Positions 5,587-30,028 of a DNA stretch of 64,000 nucleotides are shown here, one piece after another. How positions within the stretch are numbered: the first letter of the stretch is position 1; every line of letters begins with the position of its first letter. The notes under the pieces are model-generated. The model was not told the origin of the DNA and made no database searches. It saw only the letters and a program-made list of their open reading frames with translations. The stretch is from Limisphaerales bacterium (lineage in GTDB: Bacteria; Verrucomicrobiota; Verrucomicrobiia; Limisphaerales; CAIMTB01), in NCBI GenBank assembly GCA_050250555.1, contig JBFWOK010000004.1:17526-81525 (forward strand), given 5' to 3'. Made by a program: the position numbers and the translations under genes.

Positions 5587-6894
5587 ATGATCGGCCGAAT
5601 CCTCCGCATCGCCCGCCGGGACTACATCGCGGCCGTGTTCACCAAGGGCTTCCTGATTGGCCTGGTCCTCGCACCCCTCCTCATGGGTGGCGGCCTCTTG
5701 GCAATACCCTTGATGAAACACACGGAGCCCGCGGAGCGCCGGCTCGTGATCCTTGATCCTTCCGGAACCCTCGCGGAGCCCCTGACCCAGGCGGCCGCGC
5801 AGCGGGTCGGTTCCGGCCCCGGAGGCTCCCGCAAAGGTCCCGAACTGAAGCTCGAATTCCTTTCCCCGGAAACCAACGATGCCCCGGACCGCCAGCGCCT
5901 GACGCTCGCCGACCGCGTCCGCTCGGGCTCGGTCCACGCCTTCGTCGAGGTCTCACCCGAGGTCTTTCAGGCATCGTCGGGTTCCTCCCGGACGTCCATT
6001 CAGTACTTCGCCCGGAGTTCGGTCATGGACGAAACCCGGGGTTGGATCGAGCAGACTCTCAACCAGGAACTCCGCAGGCGGCGTTTCGATGCCGCCGGCA
6101 TTGGCGCCGACCAACGCAAAGCGCTCGAAGCCTGGTTCAACGTCCAGGGGATGACGCTCCCATCCCGGGACCAGGCCACCGGCGAAGTGAAGGCGGCCCG
6201 CAGGGAGAACGAATTGGCCACCGTCGGCGTCCCCATGGCGGCCATCCTCGCCATGATGATGCTCGTGATGATGGGCGCGCTGCCGCTCCTCCAGAGCGTG
6301 CTCGAGGAGAAATCCCAGCGCATCGCCGAAGTCCTCCTCGGCTGCGCGTCGCCCTGGGAAATCATGGCCGGCAAACTCCTCGGCGGCGTCGGCGTCACCC
6401 TCACGGCCATGGTGTTCTACGGAGGAGCCGGCGGCCTCGCCCTCGGATCCCTCGCCGTCTCCGGTGTCGTTCCCCTGGGGGTCCTTCCCTGGTTCCTCGT
6501 GTACGGAATTTCGGCGGTGCTTCTCTACGGATCCGCCGCCGTCGCCCTCGGATCCGCCTGCAGCGACGCCAAGGACGCGCAGCATCTTCAGATGCCCGTG
6601 ATGATGCCCCTCCTGATCCCCGTCATGGTGATGATGCCCATTCTCAAGGAACCCCACAGCACCCTCGCCACCGCGCTGTCCCTCTTCCCCCCGTTCACTC
6701 CCCTGGTCATGGTCCTCCGCCTCGCAGCACCCGGCGGCGTCCCCGCCTGGCAGAATTGGATTGGAGTGGTCGGCGTCCTCGTCACAACCGCGTTCACGCT
6801 GTGGATCGCCGGCAGGATCTTCCGCGTCGGCATCCTCCTCCAGGGAAAGGCGCCGAAGTTCTCCGAGATCCTCCGATGGGGACTTCGCGGCTGA
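5587..6894 (+). CDS. ABC-2 family transporter permease
   Basis: Starts 5 nt after the ATPase gene. Has an N-terminal TM helix, a large extracytoplasmic loop and about 5 C-terminal TM helices (MAAILAMMMLVMMGALPLL..., VMMPLLIPVMVMMPIL...). Confidence 0.75.
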   Translation: MIGRILRIARRDYIAAVFTKGFLIGLVLAPLLMGGGLLAIPLMKHTEPAERRLVILDPSGTLAEPLTQAAAQRVGSGPGGSRKGPELKLEFLSPETNDAPDRQRLTLADRVRSGSVHAFVEVSPEVFQASSGSSRTSIQYFARSSVMDETRGWIEQTLNQELRRRRFDAAGIGADQRKALEAWFNVQGMTLPSRDQATGEVKAARRENELATVGVPMAAILAMMMLVMMGALPLLQSVLEEKSQRIAEVLLGCASPWEIMAGKLLGGVGVTLTAMVFYGGAGGLALGSLAVSGVVPLGVLPWFLVYGISAVLLYGSAAVALGSACSDAKDAQHLQMPVMMPLLIPVMVMMPILKEPHSTLATALSLFPPFTPLVMVLRLAAPGGVPAWQNWIGVVGVLVTTAFTLWIAGRIFRVGILLQGKAPKFSEILRWGLRG

Positions 6895-18432: not shown

Positions 18433-20922
18433 GTGAATGATTTATTTCATGCCGTGAACCCGATCCGACCGCGTTGGTTCGTCCGGAACCTGGAATCCGC
18501 CCGCAAGGTCCTGCCCGTGGCCCTCCCGCCGCATCCCCATCGCCGCAGCCGTGCCGCCAACGGACTCCGCCTGCTCGTCCTCCTTCCCCTCCTGCTCGCC
18601 GGCGCTCCACCCGCTCCCGCCGCCGCCGACCAGAACTTCCTCGGCCAACCCAACACCGCCCGCGCCCACCCGGCCGACACACCCACCGCGACCACTCCCC
18701 GAACCCGCCGGATCCTGTACAACCTCGACGGCGATTCCTGCATGACCCTCCGGGCCGGACGCACCGGACCCGGCCCGATCACCGCCGCCGATCTCACCAA
18801 CCTCGTCGCCGAAATCACCCGGCCCGGCAGCCAACTCGACACCGTTCTGGTCTGCGTCAACGCCCAGGTGATGTACTACCCCACCGCCGTGGGCACCCTT
18901 CGCGGCACCCGTTCCACCCCCGAGGAACGCGCCCGCTGGTCCTCCCACGAGCGCCAGCGCTTCGCCAATCTCGACGCCTTCTTCGCCCAGGGACTCGATC
19001 CCTACGCCGTTCTCTTCGCCGAAGCCCGGCGCTGCGGACTCGAGACTCTCCTCACGTTCCGCATGAACGACGCCCACGGGAATGATTTTCTCCGAACCGC
19101 GTTCTGGGAACGCCATCCCGGGTTCCGCCTCGGCAAAGGCGCCCTCGATTTCGCCCATGACGCGGTCCGCGACCATGTGTTCGAACTCATCCGGGAGACG
19201 GTCCGCCGCTACGATGTCGACGGCCTCGAACTGGACTTCCTGCGGTTCCCCACGTTCTTCAAGGCCGGCGACCCCGCGGAGAACAAAGCGAGAATGAACG
19301 GTCTCGTCCGCCGCGTCCGGGAGTTCCTCGACGCCGAAAGCGCCCGCCGCGGACGCCCGCTGGTGCTCGGAGTGCGCGCGCCCTCCGATTACGGTCGGAC
19401 CCGCCCGACCTACGCCCATTCCGTCGCCGCACCGAGAGCCTGCGATGTCGCCGAATGGACCCGAAGCGGCTGGATCGATTTCCTCACTGTCAGCGACTGG
19501 CTCTTCAACGGCGACACCCTCGACCTCGCCGACTGGCGCCGTCATGTGCCCGGAATCCCGATCTACGCCGCCATCCAGCCCGAAACCCGGCCCTCGTCGA
19601 ATCCGACCCGTTGCGAGCATTGCCTGGGCGCGGACGGATATCGCCTCGCCGCCCGCGAACGCTGGGCGGACGGCGCCGATGGCATCTACCTGTTCAATTT
19701 CTTCACCGCCCGCGAGTGGCCCGAACCCGCCGAACCGCCCTTCGAGGTGCTCTCCGAGATCGGCGAACCCCGCGGGATCACCGAACGCATCCCCATCCTC
19801 GGCTGGCACAGCATCCCCGAACGCGAGTTGTCCCTGGAACGGTTCCAGGAACTCGCCGGCATGGGCCTGACCCTCAGCCTCATGCACTACAGCCCCGAAG
19901 GAAACCTGAAGGCCCTCGACCTCGCCGCCCGGACCGGGGTCCGCCTTTTCATCGGCGATTCCCGATTCCGCCAACCCGGCCCCGAGCTGGACGAAGCCGT
20001 CCGCACCTACCGCCAACACCCCGCGCTCGCCGGGTACACACTCAAGGACGAACCCAGCCTCGCCGAGTTTCCAACCCTCGCCGCCGCCCGCGATGCGCTC
20101 GCCGCCGCCGACCCGGACCCGGCCCACGGGAGCTACGTGAACCTCTTTCCCACTTACGCCAGCCCCGCCCAACTCGGCTGCCCCACCTACCCGGAACACC
20201 TGCGCCGCTTCGTCCTCGAATTCCGCCCTCAGGTCCTGAGCTTCGATCACTACCCGATCCTCGACGGCGGTGCCGTCCGCCCCGATTACTACCAGAACCT
20301 CGAGTGGATCCGCCGCGCCGCCCTCGACGCCGGCGTGCCCTTCTGGGCCTTCGCCCTCGCCTGCCCCCACAAGCCCTATCCCACCCCCACCGCCGGTCAT
20401 GTCCGCCTCCAGGCCTGGAGCAACTTCGCCTACGGCGCCCGCGCCCTGCAGTACTTCACCTACTGGACTCCCAACCCGGGAACCTGGGACTTCCACGACG
20501 CCCCCATCCGCCTCGACGGCTCCCGCAGCCCGACCTACGACCTGCTCCGCGCCTTCAACCGGGACGTCCAGGCCTGCGCCGACGTCCTCCTCCGCAGCCG
20601 CGTGACCGCCGTCTTCCACACCGAACCCCTCCCCGCCGGCACCACCGCCGCGGATGCCGCCTGCCCCTTCCAAACCATCGAAGGCGGACCGGCGCTCGTC
20701 GGACTGCATGTCCTCCCCGACGACCGCCGCTATGCCCTCGTCGTCAACCGTTCCCCCACCGAACCCGCCACGCTTCGACTCACGCTTCGCGATGAGGTCC
20801 GGCGCGTTTCCTGGGAGCATCCCGTCGCCGGGGCGCGCCTCCACGAATCGACGAACCGCGTCGCCACCCTCGCCCTCGAACCCGGCGCCGCCGCCCTCCT
20901 CCGCATCCATCCCGCACCATGA
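18433..20922 (+). CDS. secreted two-domain glycoside-hydrolase-like protein (TIM-barrel-like modules)
   Basis: This is the real gene inside track ORF 17137..20922; the 5' part of that ORF overlaps the CRTAC1-like gene out of frame. Signal peptide RLLVLLPLLLAGAPPAPAAA. FRMNDAHGNDF...VDGLELDFLRFP resembles GH-like family 10 proteins. The C-terminal half (YTLKDEPS...FDHYPI) resembles GH42-type barrels. Candidate starts are GTG at 18433, 18454 or 18517. Confidence 0.55.
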   Translation: MNDLFHAVNPIRPRWFVRNLESARKVLPVALPPHPHRRSRAANGLRLLVLLPLLLAGAPPAPAAADQNFLGQPNTARAHPADTPTATTPRTRRILYNLDGDSCMTLRAGRTGPGPITAADLTNLVAEITRPGSQLDTVLVCVNAQVMYYPTAVGTLRGTRSTPEERARWSSHERQRFANLDAFFAQGLDPYAVLFAEARRCGLETLLTFRMNDAHGNDFLRTAFWERHPGFRLGKGALDFAHDAVRDHVFELIRETVRRYDVDGLELDFLRFPTFFKAGDPAENKARMNGLVRRVREFLDAESARRGRPLVLGVRAPSDYGRTRPTYAHSVAAPRACDVAEWTRSGWIDFLTVSDWLFNGDTLDLADWRRHVPGIPIYAAIQPETRPSSNPTRCEHCLGADGYRLAARERWADGADGIYLFNFFTAREWPEPAEPPFEVLSEIGEPRGITERIPILGWHSIPERELSLERFQELAGMGLTLSLMHYSPEGNLKALDLAARTGVRLFIGDSRFRQPGPELDEAVRTYRQHPALAGYTLKDEPSLAEFPTLAAARDALAAADPDPAHGSYVNLFPTYASPAQLGCPTYPEHLRRFVLEFRPQVLSFDHYPILDGGAVRPDYYQNLEWIRRAALDAGVPFWAFALACPHKPYPTPTAGHVRLQAWSNFAYGARALQYFTYWTPNPGTWDFHDAPIRLDGSRSPTYDLLRAFNRDVQACADVLLRSRVTAVFHTEPLPAGTTAADAACPFQTIEGGPALVGLHVLPDDRRYALVVNRSPTEPATLRLTLRDEVRRVSWEHPVAGARLHESTNRVATLALEPGAAALLRIHPAP

Positions 20923-20955
20923 ACAACAACCCGCATAGGTCGCCGCACCGTCGAC
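20867..20955. repeat. left copy of an ~89-bp direct repeat flanking the vapBC cassette
   Basis: ccctcgccctcgaacccggcgccgccgccctcctccgcatccatcccgcaccatgaacaacaaccc... The first 64 nt are identical to 21842-21905. There are 5 mismatches overall. Confidence 0.9.
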
Positions 20956-21037
20956 GGGGACCGTTTTGAACGCGCCCGGCATCAACATAGGTGTCGACCA
21001 AAACGCACAAGGATGCTTTGATGCGTTTGGTGATTTG

Positions 21038-21322
21038 ATGAGAACTACAATCGATTTGCCGGAGGATCTTCTGAGGCAGGCCAAGGCTCGGGCCGCTCTC
21101 GACGGGAAGAAGTTGAAGGACCTCCTCACCGTGTTCATTCAAGAAGGTCTTCGTAGACGCGATTCGAGCCGAACAGACGCACGCGGGAGATCGCTCGGAC
21201 GCCGATCTCCGCCGCCCGTGCTCGTTCCACGCCGCGGAGTCCCCATCCCGGCGGTTTCGCCCGACGCGCTCCGCCAACTGGAGGACCAGGAAGACGAAGC
21301 CCGACATGCGCGACCTGCTTGA
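21038..21322 (+). CDS. vapB: VapB-type antitoxin
   Basis: MRTTIDLPEDLLRQAKARAALDGKKLKDLLTVFIQEGL is a typical antitoxin N-terminus. The gene overlaps the downstream PIN gene by 17 nt. Confidence 0.65.
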   Translation: MRTTIDLPEDLLRQAKARAALDGKKLKDLLTVFIQEGLRRRDSSRTDARGRSLGRRSPPPVLVPRRGVPIPAVSPDALRQLEDQEDEARHARPA

Positions 21323-21734
21323 CTCCAGTGTGTGGCTCCCGCTCTCGGCCCCGGATCATGTCCACTACTCACGCGCCAGAGCGTACTGGACCAAAGAAGC
21401 GGACGAGGAACTCGCGTTTTGTCGAGTCACAGCGTTGGCTCTGCTCCGCCACCTGACCCATCCGCGAATCATGGGCGCGGCAGCTCTTGATGGCGCGGCC
21501 TCATGGACAGCGCTCGGGAAGTGGCTGGCCACGCCGCGCATCCATCTCATTCCGGAGCCGGCTGGAATCGACGAGTGGTTGCGTCGATGGAGCGTCCACC
21601 TGGATCTTCGAGGCGGCGCATGGACGGACGCGTACCTCGCCGCTTTCGCCATGGCCTCCGATTGCCGCCTGGTCGCATTCGACGCGGGATACAGCCGCTA
21701 CCCCGGACTTCGCTTCCTGCATCTCCAGCCATAG
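21306..21734 (+). CDS. vapC: PIN-domain toxin VapC
   Basis: LLDSSVWL (first acidic residue), FCRVTALALLRHLT, WTDAYLAAFA and LVAFDAGY are canonical PIN motifs. Confidence 0.8.
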   Translation: MRDLLDSSVWLPLSAPDHVHYSRARAYWTKEADEELAFCRVTALALLRHLTHPRIMGAAALDGAASWTALGKWLATPRIHLIPEPAGIDEWLRRWSVHLDLRGGAWTDAYLAAFAMASDCRLVAFDAGYSRYPGLRFLHLQP

Positions 21735-21841
21735 TTCAACCTCTGGTTCCGATTGAAATGGAAGATCGGCTCAATTCTGAGCCGGCAGCCTCACAATGGT
21801 CGCTTGTGGATGTTTTATACCCATTGTCTTTCACCGCACCG

Positions 21842-21930
21842 CCCTCGCCCTCGAACCCGGCGCCGCCGCCCTCCTCCGCATCCATCCCGCACCATGAACA
21901 ACAACCCACACGGGCCACCGCACCGTCGAC
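21842..21930. repeat. right copy of the ~89-bp direct repeat flanking the vapBC cassette
   Basis: See 20867-20955. This copy carries the functional ATG (21894) of the downstream gene, plus a dead copy of the upstream gene's 3' end (..ALEPGAAALLRIHPAP*). Confidence 0.9.
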
Positions 21931-23399
21931 CAGGACCCTTTGCCTCGGCGCTCGGCCTGTTCCTCTTCCTCCTGACACCCGTCCTCGAACCGCCCTCGTC
22001 CGCCCTTGCCGCGCCTCCCCCACTCCCCGCGCCCCGGATGACCTACCTCGACAACGGCAAGGTCCGCATCGGTATGGACCTCGCCCTCGGCGGCGCCGTC
22101 ACTTTCCTCTCCAGCCCCGACCACGCCGGCAACCTCATCAACAGCGCCGATCTCGGCCGCCAGATCCAGATGTCCCACTACTCCGGCCCCTGGCCCTTCG
22201 TCGCCGGAGACAAACAACCCGCCCCCCAATGGGCCGGCCTCGGCTGGAATCCGATCCAAACCGGCGACTGCCACCACAATCCCTCAACGGTCACCGACCA
22301 CCGCAACGACGGCCGCGAGCTCTACATCCGTTGCGTCCCCATGCAGTGGCCCCACGACAACGTCCCCGGCGACTGCGTCTTCGAAACCTGGACCACCCTC
22401 GACGGCCCCGTCGCCCGCCTGCGCTTCCGCTGCACCAACCGGCGCGCCGACACCACCCGCTACCGGCCCTGCCCCCAGGAACTCCCCGCCGTCTACACCA
22501 TCTCCCGCCTCTCCCGCCTTATGGCCTACACCGGCGACCAACCGTTCACCGGCGCCCCCCTCACCCACGTCCGCAACGACTGGAAACAACCCTGGCCCTG
22601 GACCCGCTTCACCGCCACCGAACGCTGGGCCGCCCTCGTCGATGACTCCGATTTCGGCCTCGGTGTCTTCAAGGACGACGGCGGTGAGTTCCACGGCGGC
22701 ATCCATGGCGAAGGCCGGTCCGACGACCCGAAACACGGCTCCACCGCCTACGTCGCCCCCATCCACCGCGAGAACTTCGATCACAACATCGTCTACGAAC
22801 ACCGCACCGACCTCATGGTCGGCCGCCTCGACGACATCCGACACCGGTTCAACGCCCTCGCCACCCGCACGCCCCCGGACTGGCGCTTCGACACCGACCG
22901 CCAGCACTGGACCCTCGTCGGGGCCACCGACGACGGCTTCCCCTGGAAGGGCGAGTGGCGCCTCCGCTTCGACACCCGGAAACCCCGCCTCGAAGGCCCC
23001 ACCCAATGCTGGCGCGCCGAACACGGCCCGATCCTCGAAATCGAGGCCGCCCGCCACGGTCGCGCCATCCAAGCCCGCGTGTTCTGGAAACGCCTCGACG
23101 ATGACGGGTTCGACGCCTCGAAGAGCCTCCCGTTCGAACTCCCCGCCGACGGCACCTTCCACACGCTCCGGGTGGACCTCGCCGTTTCCCCCGAATACCG
23201 CGGGCTCCTCACCGGCCTCGCCCTCGAACCCGTCGCCGATCATCCCCGGGGCCGGGCGGACGGCGAACTGATCCTCCGACGCATCACCCTGCGCGAACGC
23301 GATGCCCCGGCGCCCGCCGCGGCCCCGCGCGCGGCTACGCAGCCCCAGCCCCAGCCCCAGCCCCAGCTCACCCTACCCCTTCCGGCCCCCGGGGCATGA
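21894..23399 (+). CDS. secreted hypothetical protein with a C-terminal (PQ)n tail
   Basis: ATG at 21894 and signal peptide FASALGLFLFLLTPVLEP. The ORF is long, with normal composition. No domain was recognised. Confidence 0.7.
   Translation: MNNNPHGPPHRRPGPFASALGLFLFLLTPVLEPPSSALAAPPPLPAPRMTYLDNGKVRIGMDLALGGAVTFLSSPDHAGNLINSADLGRQIQMSHYSGPWPFVAGDKQPAPQWAGLGWNPIQTGDCHHNPSTVTDHRNDGRELYIRCVPMQWPHDNVPGDCVFETWTTLDGPVARLRFRCTNRRADTTRYRPCPQELPAVYTISRLSRLMAYTGDQPFTGAPLTHVRNDWKQPWPWTRFTATERWAALVDDSDFGLGVFKDDGGEFHGGIHGEGRSDDPKHGSTAYVAPIHRENFDHNIVYEHRTDLMVGRLDDIRHRFNALATRTPPDWRFDTDRQHWTLVGATDDGFPWKGEWRLRFDTRKPRLEGPTQCWRAEHGPILEIEAARHGRAIQARVFWKRLDDDGFDASKSLPFELPADGTFHTLRVDLAVSPEYRGLLTGLALEPVADHPRGRADGELILRRITLRERDAPAPAAAPRAATQPQPQPQPQLTLPLPAPGA
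23340..23369 (+). repeat. hexanucleotide repeat (cagccc) x4, plus one imperfect unit
   Basis: Encodes QPQPQPQPQL at the C-terminus of the preceding CDS. Confidence 0.9.
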
Positions 23400-23780
23400 C
23401 AGGCCAGCACTTACGAGGTGTCACGCCAGCTCCCACCCCGGTCCACGGGGCGGCCATGAGGTGTGGAATACGCACCTCCGTACCCCGTTGTTCATTTTCT
23501 GGCCCGAGAATCCCAAAGGGATTTCGCCCCCAAGCCTAGGGTTGAATCGCACAGCGGGCTTACCCTGAGTTACGCATCATCCGAGCCACCAACACCAACG
23601 GTGTTGCGTCCGACGGCCATAATCCCGATGGAGTTGCAGGAACTCCGAGGCCTATTCGACGGATCCGTCCTGGCCCGAATAGAGGTACCCAGTCCCATTG
23701 TCTCCTGCTATCGCACCTCCAAATCAACCACCATGCCCATGTCGGAAGTCGCATTTCCGAGGCATGTCACTCGAATCGAT

Positions 23781-24263
23781 TTACCGCCGTTCCTCGGGGA
23801 AATCCAAGACTTCCAGACCCTCGGCCCGAGCGATCTTCGACTGCCGGTGGTCGAAGGTGAGAAACTGTTCGACGCCAAGGTGAAGGGCCGCCGCCACGTG
23901 AAGCACATCGCTCGCTCGAGCGCCGAGACGTTGGGTATGCTCTGCGGACAATTGAAGTGATCGAACGACGACCGCTTCCACATCCATCGCCACGCTTGTC
24001 AGCCCTCGCCGTCGCAGCAATTGGGCAAGACGAGCAACAGATGCGTCCATCTCTTCCTGGATGCGCTTACGTTCGCGTGCTGGCCGGACCTGGGACTCGT
24101 GGAAGGCGCGCTGTCGCAGGGCGTTCTCGACCTCGAGCTGATGAACCCATAGGTAAGGAAGAATGGGACGGCCAGCGTGCCGGTACGCGCCGATCGCCGC
24201 CTCGCTGTCGGCCTCACCCACGACCAACCGTAAAATGAAACTACTGTCGGCGTATGCGGTCAT
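23781..24263 (-). CDS. vapC: PIN-domain toxin (VapC family)
   Basis: MTAYADSSFILRLV..., SDVLHVAAALHLG, FLTFDHRQ. The ATG overlaps the antitoxin stop (ATGA). Confidence 0.8.
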   Translation of the reverse strand: MTAYADSSFILRLVVGEADSEAAIGAYRHAGRPILPYLWVHQLEVENALRQRAFHESQVRPARERKRIQEEMDASVARLAQLLRRRGLTSVAMDVEAVVVRSLQLSAEHTQRLGARASDVLHVAAALHLGVEQFLTFDHRQSKIARAEGLEVLDFPEERR

Positions 24264-24502
24264 CGTCGCGATTCGTCCAGGAGACGGGCAGCGCTGACGT
24301 TGCTGCAAGGCGCGGAAAGCGTCGCATCGAGGATCTCGTCGATGACCCGATCACGGCTCGGGTCGGATTCGACGGCCTCGGCAGCGCGAAGGACCCAGAG
24401 GGGCTCCTTGGCATCGGTGATTACGACCGTCTCACCCGCGCGGGTCCACTGCTTCACCTGACCAGGATCGCGCAGGAGGCGGCGAAGCGGGATCGTCTTC
24501 AT
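24260..24502 (-). CDS. Phd/YefM-like antitoxin
   Basis: MKTIPLRRLLRDPGQVKQWTRAGETVVITDAKEPLWVLR. Lies immediately upstream of the PIN gene and is translationally coupled to it. Confidence 0.6.
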   Translation of the reverse strand: MKTIPLRRLLRDPGQVKQWTRAGETVVITDAKEPLWVLRAAEAVESDPSRDRVIDEILDATLSAPCSNVSAARLLDESRR

Positions 24503-24612: not shown

Positions 24613-24689
24613 GCGGCCGTAGCTCAATTGGCTAGAGCTTCTGACTTCGGATCAGAAGGTTGCAGGTTCGAGCCCTGCCGGCCGTACCA
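24613..24689 (+). tRNA. tRNA-Arg (anticodon UCG), with CCA encoded
   Basis: Cloverleaf folded by hand. Acceptor gcggccg/cggccgt (G1-U72 wobble). D arm gctc-aattggcta-gagc. Anticodon arm tctga-ctTCGga-tcaga. Variable loop aggtt. T arm gcagg-ttcgagc-cctgc. Discriminator a, then cca. Confidence 0.9.
24667..24689 (+). repeat. proximal att-like repeat (tRNA-Arg 3' end)
   Basis: ttcgagccctgccggccgtacca matches 28752-28774 at 22 of 23 positions. Confidence 0.9.
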
Positions 24690-24890
24690 TTCAGGATCAA
24701 CGTGTTACACCGATTCCTCAAGGGCCCATGGAGGAACGCTTCGTCAAAACTTGGCCACTTTCTGCGGGAATCGTGCGGCGCTGCCGGCTCTTGCCGCCCT
24801 GCATCCCAGGTCGGTTTGTCCCTTGACCGATAGGGGCGCCGGAATCCCGAAGAGGAATCCAACATCTAGACCCCGAACTCCCGAGGTTTC

Positions 24891-25424
24891 ATGCACGCCC
24901 TCAAGTCCGCAGCCGTTGCTGCACTCCTCGTTCTAGCCTTTCCCACCGGAGTCCATGCCCAAGACCCCGTGGCCAACGGCCTCGTGGCGTATTACCCGTT
25001 CAACGGGAGCGCGAACGACGAGAGCGGGAAGGGCAACCACGGCGCGATCATTGGGTACGACTGGAAATTCTCCTTCGACCGATTTGGCGGTGCGAACAGC
25101 CTTTACCTCAACACGACCTCGAACCCCACTTCGACTTTTGACGGAACCTACGTCGTCGTCCCCAGAAGTGCCTCCCTCGATTTCACCGCCGACTTCACTC
25201 TGAGCGTCTGGGTTAATCTGCCGAGCGGACTCATTTACCACGTCCACAACCTGATTTCCAACGGCCGCGATGACAGTGGAGCCAACCTTCGAATCGTGTC
25301 CCATGCGGCAACCGACGGACGAGATTACTTTCAGTATATCCACTCGCGCCGCCGGCAACACTCCAAGGCATTCCGCAAAATGCGGTGCCGGGATCCAAGG
25401 TCTGGCCCAGTTGACGTGACGTGA
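24891..25424 (+). pseudogene. LamG/concanavalin-A-like lectin domain protein, apparently truncated
   Basis: Signal peptide, then LVAYYPFNGSANDESGKGNHG...SLDFTADFTLSVWV (typical LamG N-terminal half). The sequence then degenerates (..HSRRRQHSKAFRKMRCRD*). About 420 nt of noncoding sequence follows. Confidence 0.45.
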
Positions 25425-25844
25425 CGCGACGCTCGGGTGTCTTTCCGCCCGCTCCCGTCCCTTCAACTTCTCCATTCAAGACCCCAAGTCCGAGGAGTCC
25501 CGCGGGCAAGGGTTCCCTTTTCGTGCCCCGACCGTCCCGGCACCTCCCAACCCCCAACCTCCAGCGTAGAACGACGGGCCCCACCGTGGGGCGCTCCTCA
25601 CGTGCAAGCCAGCATTCGCTTCCAGGTCATCGGGGCGATCCGATCCTTGCCGAGGTGCGGTCGGCAATTCACCGATTCCACGCAGCAACCACCAAGTTTC
25701 CAGGGCGTTTAACGTTTTTGACCTTCCGGCTCCGTAAGTTGCACGAGCATAGCGCATTGGAAGTATTTGACGCCACGCGATTCATCTGATGCCGCGCCGC
25801 AGTTCGGCATTGCTGCAGCTCTGCAATTCAGTAATGCTGCCGGG

Positions 25845-26066
25845 GTGAGCACTGTGGTCCAGATCAACCAGCGTGGGACGTTCACGATCCCCAAGGAACT
25901 TCGGGAGAAGTATGGCTTGGATCGTCAGGCGATTCTCGAGGAAACGCCCGACGGTCTCATCCTGCGTCCGGCAGCCACCTACCCGGTCGAGATCTATTCC
26001 GCTGAGCGTTTGGCCGAGTTCCAGAGGATGAACGAGGACGGTCTCCAAGGATTCGCCCTCAAGTGA
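25845..26066 (+). CDS. AbrB/MazE/SpoVT-family antitoxin
   Basis: VQINQRGTFTIPKELREKYGL is a swapped-hairpin motif. The stop overlaps the GTG of the PIN gene (GTGA). The GTG start at 25845 is tentative. Confidence 0.65.
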   Translation: MSTVVQINQRGTFTIPKELREKYGLDRQAILEETPDGLILRPAATYPVEIYSAERLAEFQRMNEDGLQGFALK

Positions 26067-26491
26067 AGGTCTTCCTCGACGCCAACGTGTTGTTCTCCGC
26101 CGCGTTGCCAGTAAGTCGGATGGGCGAATTTGTACGCTGCATGAGGAAGCATGCCGAACTGGCGAGCAGCCCCGCCGCCGTGGATGAAGCCCTGCGGAAT
26201 GTGGAACGAAAGCTCACCGACGCCACGGTGGTGGCCCGCAATCTTCAGGAACTACTGAAGGGCGTCAGCCTTTCCTCATCGGTGGTCGAATTGCCGGGCG
26301 TTGTACTGGTGGAAAAAGACCAACACATTTTGGGAGCCGCGGTGGCCTCCGCATGCTCGCACCTCCTGACCGGGGACCAGCGTCATTTCCAACACCTCTT
26401 CGGAAACGTCGTGGGTGGCGTACGGTTAGTCCACGCTGCCCAGCTGGCTGAGGAACTGGGGTTCCAACGGTCGCAACCCAACAACGGCTGA
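26063..26491 (+). CDS. PIN-domain toxin
   Basis: MKVFLDANVLFSAAL..., DQHILGAAVASACSHLLTGDQRHF. Confidence 0.75.
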   Translation: MKVFLDANVLFSAALPVSRMGEFVRCMRKHAELASSPAAVDEALRNVERKLTDATVVARNLQELLKGVSLSSSVVELPGVVLVEKDQHILGAAVASACSHLLTGDQRHFQHLFGNVVGGVRLVHAAQLAEELGFQRSQPNNG

Positions 26492-26721
26492 AACGCCCAC
26501 GACCATCCTCGGTCACCGGGCGGGAGCAAGCCGCGGTTCTGACTCATCATGCACCGGGCTTCTCAATTCCCGATGTAAGCTTCCATTGAAAACGCCCTGC
26601 GATCCGGGGCGACAGTCTGCGAGGAATCCAAGGATACGACAAACCTTCGGGCTCCGAGCCCCTTCAGATCGACCGGCCGAATGGGCGAGGAGTCGTTTGT
26701 TTGTTCGCACCTCGCCTGAGC

Positions 26722-27171
26722 TCAAACGCGCCCCGCCCGCATCGGAACTACAAAGGCACTTGGGATTCCTGTGTCCAACGTTGCGAGCTCAGACTGGTGC
26801 GCCTTCGCGAGAGCCAGCAGGTGCGCGTCCGTCGCTTGACTGGCACTTCGGCACCACTCGGGCCAGACCGTCGCCCATTGGTCGTCGGGCAGGAATTGGT
26901 GAACGGACCCCAGACTCGTCAGCATACCCGCCAGGGTTGTCCCCGCATCCGCGGGAGTGACCTGTCACTCGCACGGGACGCGCCCAATCCGTCTCGGTCG
27001 GTCCGCCTCGGGCTGCGCCCGCCTCCGCAGGTATTCCGAGACCGACAACTTCTGGCGCCGTGCCAACGGTGAACAACTCGGACGCCGGGCGATCAAACCC
27101 AATTCTTCGTCCCAGTGCTCGGCGAATCCTTGAACCACCGACAGCGACCACGACCACCCGATAGCCCCCAA
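26722..27171 (-). pseudogene. degenerate toxin-antitoxin locus: an RHH-like antitoxin ORF and a VapC C-terminal fragment in the same frame, separated by a TGA
   Basis: ..ARRQKLSVSEYLRRRAQ.. is like an RHH helix. It ends at the TGA at 26965-26967. The same frame continues as QVTPADAG...FLPDDQWATVWPEW...TDAHLLALAKAHQSELATLDTG, which is the C-terminal half of a PIN domain. The N-terminal acidic motif is absent. Confidence 0.4.
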
Positions 27172-27318
27172 TCGGCTTGCAGCGGCTCCCAGCCCCCTTC
27201 GCGCCCATCAAGCTCCTCGTGATTTCGGTTCTTCGGAGAATTGGGACCGCATCCGAAGCGGCATTCAAACATGGCACCAGATCTTTCGCGGCCGAAATGG
27301 TAAAAGGGCCCGGCCTCG

Positions 27319-28620
27319 TTAGCCCTTCAGTCCTTTGCTGGGCCATTGTCGGTCCGGCTGGAGGGTGGCGCTGTTATTCCAGCCTTGCACCATCTCATGC
27401 CACTTGGTGTAGGGCTGGATGGCCACCGAGTTGCTGAAGTGGCCCCAGAATCTCTTCAAACCCAAGTAGATGATGTTCTCCCCTTCAAGCCCGGCAGCGG
27501 TGCCGTCCCACCCGTCGTTCTTGATGAAACCGCCGTCACCGGGCACCCAGTCCTTATCGTCGCCGGTTGTACCGGAGACCTGCTTTGCCCCGCCTCCGCC
27601 CTCGATGGTGACCTTGGAAGCCGCGGCGCAACCAATCCTGTACTCCTCCGGGTGCTCGTTGATGTCCCGGTGAGCCTCGTCCCATTCCACGCCCTCCTTC
27701 TTCCAGAACTTCCCGCGCTCCTTGTCGAGCTCCCAATACTTGGGGTTCATCTTGAAGTCGTGGCGTCCCCCGGTGAAGGAGTACTGCTTCTTTCCGGCGA
27801 AATCGACCACGCCTCGGCGGGCCTCCATGTGGCGCATGAGGTGGTACTCCGCCGTACTCCCATTGTCGCCTTGAAGCCGAAAGATCCTCGGCGAGTGGAA
27901 CAAAGATGTGAACACTTCGAGACTGAGGTCCTTCGTTCGGTCGAGATGGGGGTAGCTGTAGATATCCCCCGCCTTGATGAGAAATTCGTGGAAGCTCGGG
28001 AGATCGGAATTGGGCGGCATCTGGACCTTCCGCTGAACCACTCCTTGGGACGCGCCCCCGGCCAGGACCTGATGCAGTCGGTCCTCAAGGCCTTCGGTTG
28101 AGGCGGATTCCCCGCCATCGTGGGTGTTCGTGTCCGAGATGTCCTGGGCGGCCTGTTGTCCCAATCGATCCGCCTCGGCCTCGAGTGCAGGATCGTCGTC
28201 GATGGCGCCGCCCATGGCCTGGGCTGTGGCGCGAACCCGGCCGGAGGCTTGCTGGGTTACGTGGGCCAGTTCGTGGCCCAGCAGCGCCCGACCGCTCACC
28301 GTGTGGGGCGCATACTCGCCCGGGGCGAAATGAACGTCGACACCCCGCGTGTACGCGCGGGCTCCGATGCTCGCGGCGCGCTGGTCCTGATGGACCCGAA
28401 CGGCGGAGAAATCCCACCCGAAGGAATGCTCCATTCCGGCCCGGACCCCTTCCGGCAGGCAAGCTCCCGGGGAGGACGGGGGTTGGGTCGCCAGAGATTG
28501 CCACAATGCGTTGACGGGGTGTCGTGCGGGGTCCAACTCGCCACGGGACGCCTGAGCACGTCCGACCGCCGAGGCGGTTACCGCTGCCTTGGACCGCGGT
28601 GCATCGAAGGCCTGGCTCAT
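27319..28620 (-). CDS. DUF4157 (zincin-like) N-terminal domain polymorphic-toxin-type protein with an unassigned C-terminal domain
   Basis: FGWDFSAVRVHQDQRAASIGARAYTRGVDVHFAPGEYAPHTVSGRALLGHELAHVTQQ is the DUF4157 signature and includes HExxH. This is followed by ALEAEADRLG and a ~250-aa Lys/Trp-rich C-terminal domain (..EEYRIGCAAASKV..KRFWGHFS..). Confidence 0.8.
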   Translation of the reverse strand: MSQAFDAPRSKAAVTASAVGRAQASRGELDPARHPVNALWQSLATQPPSSPGACLPEGVRAGMEHSFGWDFSAVRVHQDQRAASIGARAYTRGVDVHFAPGEYAPHTVSGRALLGHELAHVTQQASGRVRATAQAMGGAIDDDPALEAEADRLGQQAAQDISDTNTHDGGESASTEGLEDRLHQVLAGGASQGVVQRKVQMPPNSDLPSFHEFLIKAGDIYSYPHLDRTKDLSLEVFTSLFHSPRIFRLQGDNGSTAEYHLMRHMEARRGVVDFAGKKQYSFTGGRHDFKMNPKYWELDKERGKFWKKEGVEWDEAHRDINEHPEEYRIGCAAASKVTIEGGGGAKQVSGTTGDDKDWVPGDGGFIKNDGWDGTAAGLEGENIIYLGLKRFWGHFSNSVAIQPYTKWHEMVQGWNNSATLQPDRQWPSKGLKG

Positions 28621-28751
28621 AAATGTGAGCAAAGCGATTCCGGCGGGAGAAGCAAGGGCGGGAACAGACCCGCAAGGGTCAACGGGGGCACTTCAAAACG
28701 AATCGAGACTTCTCGTTGCGCTGCCGCGCCGCGACCCAAAGTCCCAATTCA

Positions 28752-28774
28752 TTCGAGCCCTGCCGGCCGCACCA
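28752..28774 (+). repeat. distal att-like repeat (copy of the tRNA-Arg 3' end)
   Basis: ttcgagccctgccggccgcacca. The single difference (C for T) would restore a G1-C72 pair in the tRNA. Confidence 0.9.
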
Positions 28775-28881: not shown

Positions 28882-29397
28882 CTATGGCTGCTGGCCGACC
28901 ACCGGCATCTCGGAGGCGATCGCCACGTCGATGAACAGTCCGATCTGGTTCTCGATCTGGAGGAACTGCCCCGCCTGCAGCGGCGAAAGCGCCTTCTCGA
29001 TCTTGGCGTGGTACTGCTCGAGCAACCGGAGTCGCCGGCGCTGCCCGCTGAACCAGCGCTTGGCGATGTCCTTGGCCTTCGCGTCGTCCAAGGCGCCCCG
29101 CCCGTGCGACTGAACGAAATCGCGGATCAATTCCGCCCGGGTCACCGCCAAATCGCCCAACGCCTTCTCGTACGCCCGGTAGATGGGCCAGAACTTCTTC
29201 GCGTCCTCGTCGGACAGCTTCATGATCGAGTTGACTAGGTCGACCTTGAAGGAATTGAAATCCGATCGGAGAACTTGGAGGTAGTTGTGAAGGTTGGAGT
29301 CGGTCGACTCCGCGGCGGTGGTGGTGGCCGCGCGAGGGCTCGGATGGGCGCCAAGGGTTGCCAGAATCAGGACAGTAAGCGCTCGAAAAGCTTTCAT
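28882..29397 (-). CDS. secreted helical hypothetical protein
   Basis: ATG at 29397 and signal peptide MKAFRALTVLILATLGA. Helical, Lys/Glu-rich mature part (..SDEDAKKFWPIYRAYEKAL..). Confidence 0.6.
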   Translation of the reverse strand: MKAFRALTVLILATLGAHPSPRAATTTAAESTDSNLHNYLQVLRSDFNSFKVDLVNSIMKLSDEDAKKFWPIYRAYEKALGDLAVTRAELIRDFVQSHGRGALDDAKAKDIAKRWFSGQRRRLRLLEQYHAKIEKALSPLQAGQFLQIENQIGLFIDVAIASEMPVVGQQP

Positions 29398-29446: not shown

Positions 29447-30028
29447 CTAGTTGAGGTCCTTGTCCTTCCAGTACTTCGTGCCCGCGACCGTGGCCTGGAG
29501 CGCGACGCCGGTGTCGGTGATCTGGTAGATCTCGAACACATTGCCGCCGGTGTCGGCCCCCGCCTCCTTGGCGACCGCCGCGCCCTTTTCGCCGGCCTTC
29601 GCCGTCGCGTCGGCCTCGCCGCCAAACTGCCAACCACTCTCGACGAATCGGCGCATGACGTCCGCGTTCTTGAAAATGAACACGACGCTCAGATCCTTCG
29701 CTCCCAGGCCGACGCCACCGCCCAAGGAGCCCATGGCCATGAAGGTCTCCTTGCCGGCCTTGTCCACCACCATGCCGTACCCGTGGCCGGTGCTGAGCAG
29801 GAAGAGGTTCATGTTCTTGTTGTTGAACGTGCCGTAACCAAACGCGCTTTCGATCTTCGCCCGGGCCTCCGGGTGCGCCGCGTACAGCTTCTCGAGAATC
29901 TGGTCCCGCTGCTTGCGGACCTCGGTCCGCTTCTCGTCGGCGCTTCCACCTTTCGGACCAAAGAGCGCCGCCGACGCGGAAAGCGCCAGCGCGACGGTGA
30001 GGAGGGTGATGGGAATGGTCTTTTTCAT
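29447..30028 (-). CDS. secreted SYLF/Ysc84-like (DUF500) lipid-binding domain protein
   Basis: Signal peptide MKKTIPITLLTVALALSASA. GSLGGGVGLGAKDLSVVFIFKNADVMRRFVESGWQFGGEADATA resembles the SYLF Gly-rich core. Confidence 0.5.
   Translation of the reverse strand: MKKTIPITLLTVALALSASAALFGPKGGSADEKRTEVRKQRDQILEKLYAAHPEARAKIESAFGYGTFNNKNMNLFLLSTGHGYGMVVDKAGKETFMAMGSLGGGVGLGAKDLSVVFIFKNADVMRRFVESGWQFGGEADATAKAGEKGAAVAKEAGADTGGNVFEIYQITDTGVALQATVAGTKYWKDKDLN

Follow-up and report, generated by a model that had tools for sequence, protein, structure and literature searches.

A probable decayed, mosaic island remnant at a tRNA-Arg(UCG) integration hotspot of an uncultured Verrucomicrobiota bacterium

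What kind of DNA lies behind a tRNA gene that bears the marks of site-specific integration, when no recombinase gene is found between those marks? The question is raised by a 64-kb stretch from an uncultured Verrucomicrobiota bacterium (the whole stretch is hereafter called the window), in which the end of a tRNA-Arg(UCG) gene recurs downstream and encloses an islet of ~4.1 kb (24690–28774) carrying toxin-antitoxin (TA) and toxin genes. The reading that we favor, with a probability of roughly three quarters (0.77), is that the locus is a decayed and mosaic tRNA island remnant, comparable to cis-mobilizable elements (CIMEs) and now fixed at a tRNA-Arg(UCG) hotspot. In other words, and with the same confidence, the 4.1 kb would be an eroded patchwork of one or more site-specific integrative elements.

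The only tRNA gene in the window according to ARAGORN and Rfam is an intact tRNA-Arg(UCG) (24613–24689, + strand; RF00005, 70 bits) with a G1-U72 wobble pair. It forms the left boundary of the islet, on the side of the putative attachment (att) site attL; no RNA family other than tRNA was detected in the window by Rfam. The last 23 nucleotides (nt) of the gene, TTCGAGCCCTGCCGGCCGTACCA (24667–24689, +, family D5), extend in the cloverleaf reading from T54, the first base of the 7-nt T-loop, to A76 of the CCA end, with a T at position 72. As pointed out in an earlier interpretation made from the letters of this DNA without database searches (the sequence-only reading), they recur in direct orientation at 28752–28774 (+) as TTCGAGCCCTGCCGGCCGCACCA, on the attR side, where they would represent a displaced tRNA 3′ end. 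The two copies agree at 22 of 23 positions, and the single mismatch falls on tRNA position 72, where the gene has U72 paired with G1 and the distal copy has C. A dispersed 23-mer would weaken the case for integration, but these are the only two copies in the whole 64 kb at up to three mismatches, and a second copy arose by chance in 0 of 100 shuffles (expectation 0). Homology is confined to the 23 nt: when the adjoining 80 nt on each side were aligned locally, the scores did not exceed those of shuffled sequence, the rest of the tRNA 3′ half does not occur again in the window, and neither alignment nor a search for remnants of a 45-nt block found any tRNA-like sequence to the left of the distal repeat.

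Both junctions are matched at 100% identity by same-population contigs that were assembled independently three times (NCBI GCA_050246335.1; Logan SRR27751815 and SRR27751816), and thus the structure is not an assembly artefact, a reading that was ruled out on this ground. Among these same-population contigs, all 100% identical and ending inside the islet, no alternative junction was found. The short-read contigs of this population end at 25493, 25665, 26881 and 27678 within the islet and at 29601 nearby, two assemblies stopping exactly at 27678, inside the DUF4157-TGL gene described below. Such ends suggest low coverage or a branch in the assembly graph, as would arise, for example, if the community contained the cassette twice.

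Is this tRNA gene used for integration elsewhere? The exact 77-nt tRNA is present in five contigs of metagenome-assembled genomes (MAGs) and in one metagenome contig, all of Verrucomicrobiota; loci on other contigs are referred to here as L002–L012, L033 and L037, and the MAGs include LOGT_bin.0235, KLAP45 and Co_metawrap_794. At L002 and L003, a tyrosine-integrase gene is located ~215 nt after the exact tRNA (PF00589 was confirmed for L003), and at L004 the tRNA is followed by an HTH_17 excisionase-type gene. At L005 (LOGT_bin.0235), the gene after the tRNA is a truncated integrase (5659–6714), which matches residues 12–288 of the 428-amino-acid (aa) L003 integrase and positions 3–71 of the 172 in the Pfam profile. 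Since this integrase is itself truncated, integrase decay recurs at the hotspot. A scan with the 23-mer uncovered six further copies that are not part of tRNA genes (L006, L007, L008, L009, L010 and L012), five of them on other contigs of three of the hotspot MAGs and the remaining one (L010) on a contig binned as Gammaproteobacteria. All six are tRNA 3′ halves of 45–47 nt with their start in the anticodon loop, where three open with the first loop base (CTTCGGA) and the other three begin a few bases before it; by sequence, they are att sites of the anticodon-loop class, and they display partial symmetry with the anticodon stem. At L008, a PF00589 integrase starts 65 nt from the displaced copy. 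In L010 (2588–3954), a 45-nt tRNA-Arg(UCG) 3′ half with T72 is directly adjacent to the stop codon of an integrase-like open reading frame (ORF) of 437 aa, which has HxxR...Y motifs and no Pfam match at 1e-3 and is adjoined by a 1306-aa ORF. This region may be the attP of a free element that was mis-binned. Furthermore, several displaced copies per MAG are found in KLAP45 and LOGT_bin.0235, which suggests tandem arrays or accretion of elements in both. Because integrase-bearing elements follow the exact tRNA and displaced 3′ fragments occur in the same MAGs, tRNA-Arg(UCG) can be considered an integration hotspot, and the view of the window's repeats as a classic attL/attR signature, already taken in the sequence-only reading, gains support from it.

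The window itself appears to retain a trace of such an element. The ~30 nt just 3′ of its tRNA (24690–24719, +) resemble the post-tRNA sequence of relatives (TTCAGGATCAA....GTTA...): in blastn, they align with L003 and L005 through 24719 and with L008 through 24718, and a multiple alignment shows the resemblance as well. It fits element-derived DNA starting right after the tRNA, and the segment is probably what remains of an element arm on the P′ side. A further arrangement was observed within LOGT_bin.0235, where the ~570 nt upstream of the L005 tRNA have a 91%-identical copy before the displaced copy of L007 (L007 1–680 versus L005 6937–7603). The 5′ half of the tRNA is degenerate in L007, and ARAGORN calls no tRNA there; the arrangement could be a flank captured by imprecise excision or a strain variant.

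What does the islet carry? The gene list of the sequence-only reading, namely, a truncated LamG gene, an AbrB-PIN pair, an RHH/PIN remnant and a DUF4157 toxin, held up in Pfam searches. The first gene (24891–25424, +) is a 177-aa ORF for a secreted LamG-like protein with a weak match to positions 4–47 of the 151 in the Laminin_G_3 profile. Its homologues are 240–303 aa long, at most 64% identical and span 72–86% of the query, and the ORF was considered truncated because only the start of the profile is matched and the homologues are of this length; no tRNA was seen near the homologues in the contexts inspected. It is followed by a cassette (25667–26588, +) with sharp homology boundaries in nucleotide identity, comprising an intact type II TA pair and its flanks. 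The AbrB/MazE-type antitoxin (25845–26066, +; MazE_antitoxin, 2.3e-4, under the Pfam cut-off) is encoded by a small gene upstream of the PIN_3 toxin gene (26063–26491, +; PIN_3, 5.6e-08, passing the cut-off), and the two overlap by 4 nt (26063–26066). The pair thus has the gene layout of a type II TA module, whose activity is predicted. On the opposite strand, Pfam identifies a degenerate pair of a ribbon-helix-helix (RHH) antitoxin and a PIN toxin (26722–27171, −). The PIN remnant (26722–26925) corresponds to the C-terminal third of the domain (positions 65–114 of the 120 in the Pfam PIN profile) and its N-terminus is missing, while the RHH-like fragment (26965–27171), with a weak NikA-like match, is separated from it by a stop codon. 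The last cassette (27271–28698, −), delimited by Pfam and by nucleotide identity to L037, contains an intact DUF4157-TGL gene (27319–28620, −). The 433-aa product has a HELAH zincin motif, an eCIS_core domain at residues 55–127 (1.3e-27) and a TGL domain at residues 260–337 (4.5e-12), and is predicted to have the architecture of toxins associated with extracellular contractile injection systems (eCIS), i.e. an N-terminal DUF4157 and a C-terminal effector domain. No eCIS structural genes (sheath, tube or baseplate) were found among the window ORFs that were scanned, which are a part of the total, or annotated.

The two intact cassettes have close counterparts in other genomes. The AbrB/PIN_3 cassette is 92.6% identical at the nucleotide level to KLAP45 sequence at L012 (6166–6858) and 91.0% identical at L006 (6983–7328), the two loci being overlapping contigs. 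In KLAP45, 266 nt separate the cassette from the terminal displaced tRNA copy downstream, and the cassette is part of a ~7-kb islet that has no integrase and encodes an IrrE-like peptidase, a NACHT-FGE protein and the TA pair. Similarly, the DUF4157-TGL cassette is 93.0% identical over 1433 nt to L037 (contig 44 of LOGT_bin.0235), where the matching segment consists of the gene and ~50–80 nt on each side and the flanks are unrelated. By comparison, the lon locus (~3.4 kb, flanks included) is only 84.3% identical to that of the window in LOGT_bin.0235, 78.3% in KLAP45 and 75.9% in Co_metawrap_794. The cassettes are far closer than lon, have sharp boundaries and reside in dissimilar surroundings; they are part of a pool of island genes that is shared through horizontal exchange. 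Rather than being one decayed element, the islet is a mosaic whose cassettes were exchanged separately. L037 also carries two tRNA-Leu(TAG) genes (1815–1898 and 2715–2798) on the same strand, 900 nt apart and next to secA, with a small SEC-C-domain ORF between them.

Could the islet encode a recombinase that was overlooked? A six-frame Pfam scan of 24690–28774 gave no match to PF00589 or PF00239 at E≤1, and tblastn searches with the integrases of L003, L008 and L010, three types recovered from relatives, found no integrase in the 64 kb, in agreement with the sequence-only reading, which had recognized no tyrosine or serine recombinase in any frame. Likewise, no arm-type repeats common to both islet ends were found, and searches of phage and plasmid databases and viral contigs yielded nothing past weak matches to the DUF4157 domain. 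An integron cassette array was considered and rejected, as there is no IntI (PF00589) and no attC and the genes lie on both strands; no common motif or structured repeat of the attC type was found at the four cassette boundaries.

Which of the two repeat copies is the older one? All full and displaced copies in the three nearest relatives by lon (LOGT_bin.0235, KLAP45 and Co_metawrap_794) have C72, whereas T72 is found in L002, L003, L009 and L033, for which lon was not recovered, and in the attP-like contig L010. Two copies that differ at this position were encountered in the window only. Since the nearest relatives all carry C72, the proposal of the sequence-only reading that the distal copy would be the displaced ancestral end, and that the working tRNA would use a T end supplied by the element, is supported; a later point mutation is a possible source of the difference as well.

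The class of the att site is less clear-cut. Integration sites within tRNA genes fall into anticodon-loop, T-loop and 3′-end sublocation classes (10.1101/2020.11.02.365908, summarising Williams 2002). By this scheme, the six copies of relatives are of the anticodon-loop class, whereas the window copy, 23 nt long and beginning at the first T-loop base, is of a class unlike theirs; its left side has no T-stem symmetry, so that a truncated longer site is possible. We leave two explanations open. The islet may have been made by an integrase of the T-loop class, which is favored by the start of the repeat exactly at the T-loop. Alternatively, attR may once have been longer and have been shortened by a deletion like the one that took the integrase, as would agree with the AATTCA to the left of the distal repeat, which has no T-stem symmetry, and with a tRNA-proximal arm similar to that of elements in genomes with 45–47-nt copies. 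Under either explanation, attR looks incomplete as a recombination site.

These observations can be accommodated in a single scenario. A tyrosine integrase would have recombined the attP of an element with the tRNA gene, whereby the element supplied a new 3′ end (T72) and the ancestral end (C72) was moved ~4 kb downstream. Deletion would later have removed the integrase, probably together with part of attR, and cassettes such as AbrB/PIN_3 and DUF4157-TGL would have arrived by exchange with the common pool of island genes. The islet would no longer be able to move on its own, and the intact AbrB/PIN_3 module may help to retain the remnant via addiction.

Base composition agrees with this scenario in part. 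The GC content of the islet is 0.617, compared with 0.667 ± 0.009 in 100 other 4.1-kb windows, none of which is as low, and in tetranucleotide distance no other 4.1-kb segment stands as far from the rest of the window. The compositional distinctness on which the sequence-only reading had made its claim depend is therefore present in GC content and tetranucleotides, but not as a clean separation in GC content at third codon positions, and the low-GC tract reaches upstream of the tRNA. There, outside the repeats, an intact pair of a Phd-like antitoxin (24260–24502, −) and a PIN toxin (23781–24263, −; Pfam PIN, 2e-07) matches the islet in its low GC content (23781–24502 as a whole), and for this reason the tract of foreign composition exceeds the repeat-bounded islet.

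Several points weigh against a decayed integrative island. The low-GC tract starts near 23400, ~1.2 kb 5′ of the tRNA, so that composition does not trace the islet edges exactly, and islet genes and some flank genes have overlapping GC contents at third codon positions. The distal repeat measures 23 nt, compared with 45–47 nt in the six displaced copies of relatives, and the AATTCA on its left is unlike the T-stem sequence (TGCAGG) expected for an intact T-loop core site. Moreover, an empty site, with the expected junction ...GGTTGCAGGTTCGAGCCCTGCCGGCCG[C/T]ACCACTTCCGAAGGCGCTACC..., was not found among the genomes and metagenome contigs searched, none of which has the same flanks; the corresponding circle junction is expected to read ...AAAGTCCCAATTCATTCGAGCCCTGCCGGCCG[C/T]ACCATTCAGGATCAACGTG... 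The junction of the distal repeat with the right flank (the 23-mer and the sequence after 28774), which is expected whether the site is occupied or empty, had 0 exact matches in metagenome contigs, and a scan of these contigs with the 47-nt tRNA 3′ half gave a single match, to another occupied tRNA. The native right flank consists of a Spy/CpxP-like gene (28882–29397, −) and a Ysc84/SYLF-like gene (29447–30028, −), a pair that is kept in 11 Verrucomicrobiota loci, in none of which it neighbors tRNA-Arg. For the Spy/CpxP-like protein, no relative above 77% aa identity was found in genome contigs or among 5.8 billion proteins, and neither the 11 loci nor the best-matching contig displays a tRNA nearby or synteny past the two-gene pair. 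The failure to find an empty site is thus explained by the lack of any available genome with the flanks of the window.

Could the islet still be mobile? The sequence-only reading had left the choice between a decayed island and a minimal element mobilized in trans; decay is favored by the two truncated genes and the patchwork content, and the mobile alternative has fared less well. In that alternative, a minimal, CIME-like element would have usable attL and attR sites and would be moved by an integrase encoded elsewhere, or in cis together with an adjoining functional element. Such an element would explain why both repeat copies are kept where the integrase is not, and its repeat begins at the first T-loop base, as is expected of a T-loop-class crossover. 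An integrase-less islet exists at the same tRNA in KLAP45 with the same TA cassette, 92.6% identical in genomes that are ~78% identical, relatives show signs of tandem arrays with several displaced copies per MAG, and the CIME concept is established (PMC5704250). However, two of the genes are truncated, the flanks of the patchwork are unrelated in each relative, and it is the cassettes that are shared, not the islet as a unit. In addition, attR lacks a recognizable inverted-repeat left half, the two ends have no arm-type repeats in common, the contigs of the same population are identical and reveal no alternative junction, and the 64 kb contain no integrase. We therefore consider continued mobility unlikely. 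A more specific version, in which a TA-stabilized, integrase-less 'cargo shuttle' with a T-loop-class att site would be carried between Verrucomicrobiota species by integrases that other tRNA-Arg(UCG) elements provide in trans or in cis, is a little less likely still; if true, it would account for the presence of AbrB/PIN_3 in integrase-less islets of two species whose lon loci are ~78% identical.

Another explanation dispenses with integration altogether: the distal 23-mer would be all that is left of another tRNA gene, now decayed, or of a local duplication, with ordinary variable chromosome in between. Indeed, the same 23-mer ends a tRNA-Arg(ACG) gene in an unrelated MAG (L011), and in the window the 23 nt survive with nothing tRNA-like to their left. 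Integration nevertheless provides a better fit: the copies are in direct orientation and start exactly where a loop begins, and the DNA between them is atypical in composition, holds TA and toxin genes and has cassettes in common with tRNA-Arg islands of relatives, in which integration at this tRNA is seen. We regard a second tRNA gene as improbable. Finally, a chance match or a chimeric assembly, in favor of which nothing was found, although short-read contigs do break within the islet, has next to no probability in view of the shuffling results and of the junctions recovered at 100% identity in three assemblies.

A decayed mosaic remnant is thus preferred over these alternatives. Beyond the islet, the window contains a 103-nt direct repeat (20864–20966 and 21839–21941), whose copies are 91% identical, 975 nt apart and flank an orphan PIN-domain gene (21306–21734, +). 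An 829-aa gene has its 3′ end within one copy, and a 501-aa gene has its 5′ end within the other; the bracketed PIN gene may be another small insertion or duplication.

Collectively, the locus provides a clear example of how islands erode to integrase-less patchworks and yet exchange TA and toxin cassettes across species, and it puts on record that integration recurs at the tRNA-Arg(UCG) hotspot of an uncultured Verrucomicrobiota lineage. For these MAGs, whose contigs are prone to breaks at this locus, it is of use in annotation, and functional study could take up two candidates, the orphan DUF4157-TGL protein and the AbrB/PIN_3 module.

How does the islet compare with known systems? Its kind is already well known, and current understanding is unchanged by it. 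Toxins with an N-terminal DUF4157 domain have been described in association with eCIS (PMC8213781). The 433-aa protein likewise combines an N-terminal DUF4157/eCIS_core domain and its HExxH motif with a C-terminal, transglutaminase-like TGL domain; here, the gene stands alone in the islet, and toxicity is predicted from the sequence only. Genomic islands placed in tRNA genes by tyrosine integrases are catalogued by Islander (PMC4383910). The islet differs from them in having no integrase, in its very small size of 4.1 kb, in its truncated genes and in its mosaic content, but shares with them the intact tRNA at one end and the displaced 3′ direct repeat at the other, as well as the atypical composition, the accessory TA and toxin cargo and the repeated use of the tRNA in relatives. 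CIMEs, which are decayed remnants of integrative and conjugative or integrative and mobilizable elements that keep attL and attR (PMC5704250), were defined in such systems of Firmicutes, whereas the function of attR is doubtful in the islet and the window holds no functional element. Like CIMEs, however, the islet is devoid of integration and transfer genes and has kept both copies of the repeat, and elements appear to accrete at the same tRNA in its relatives.

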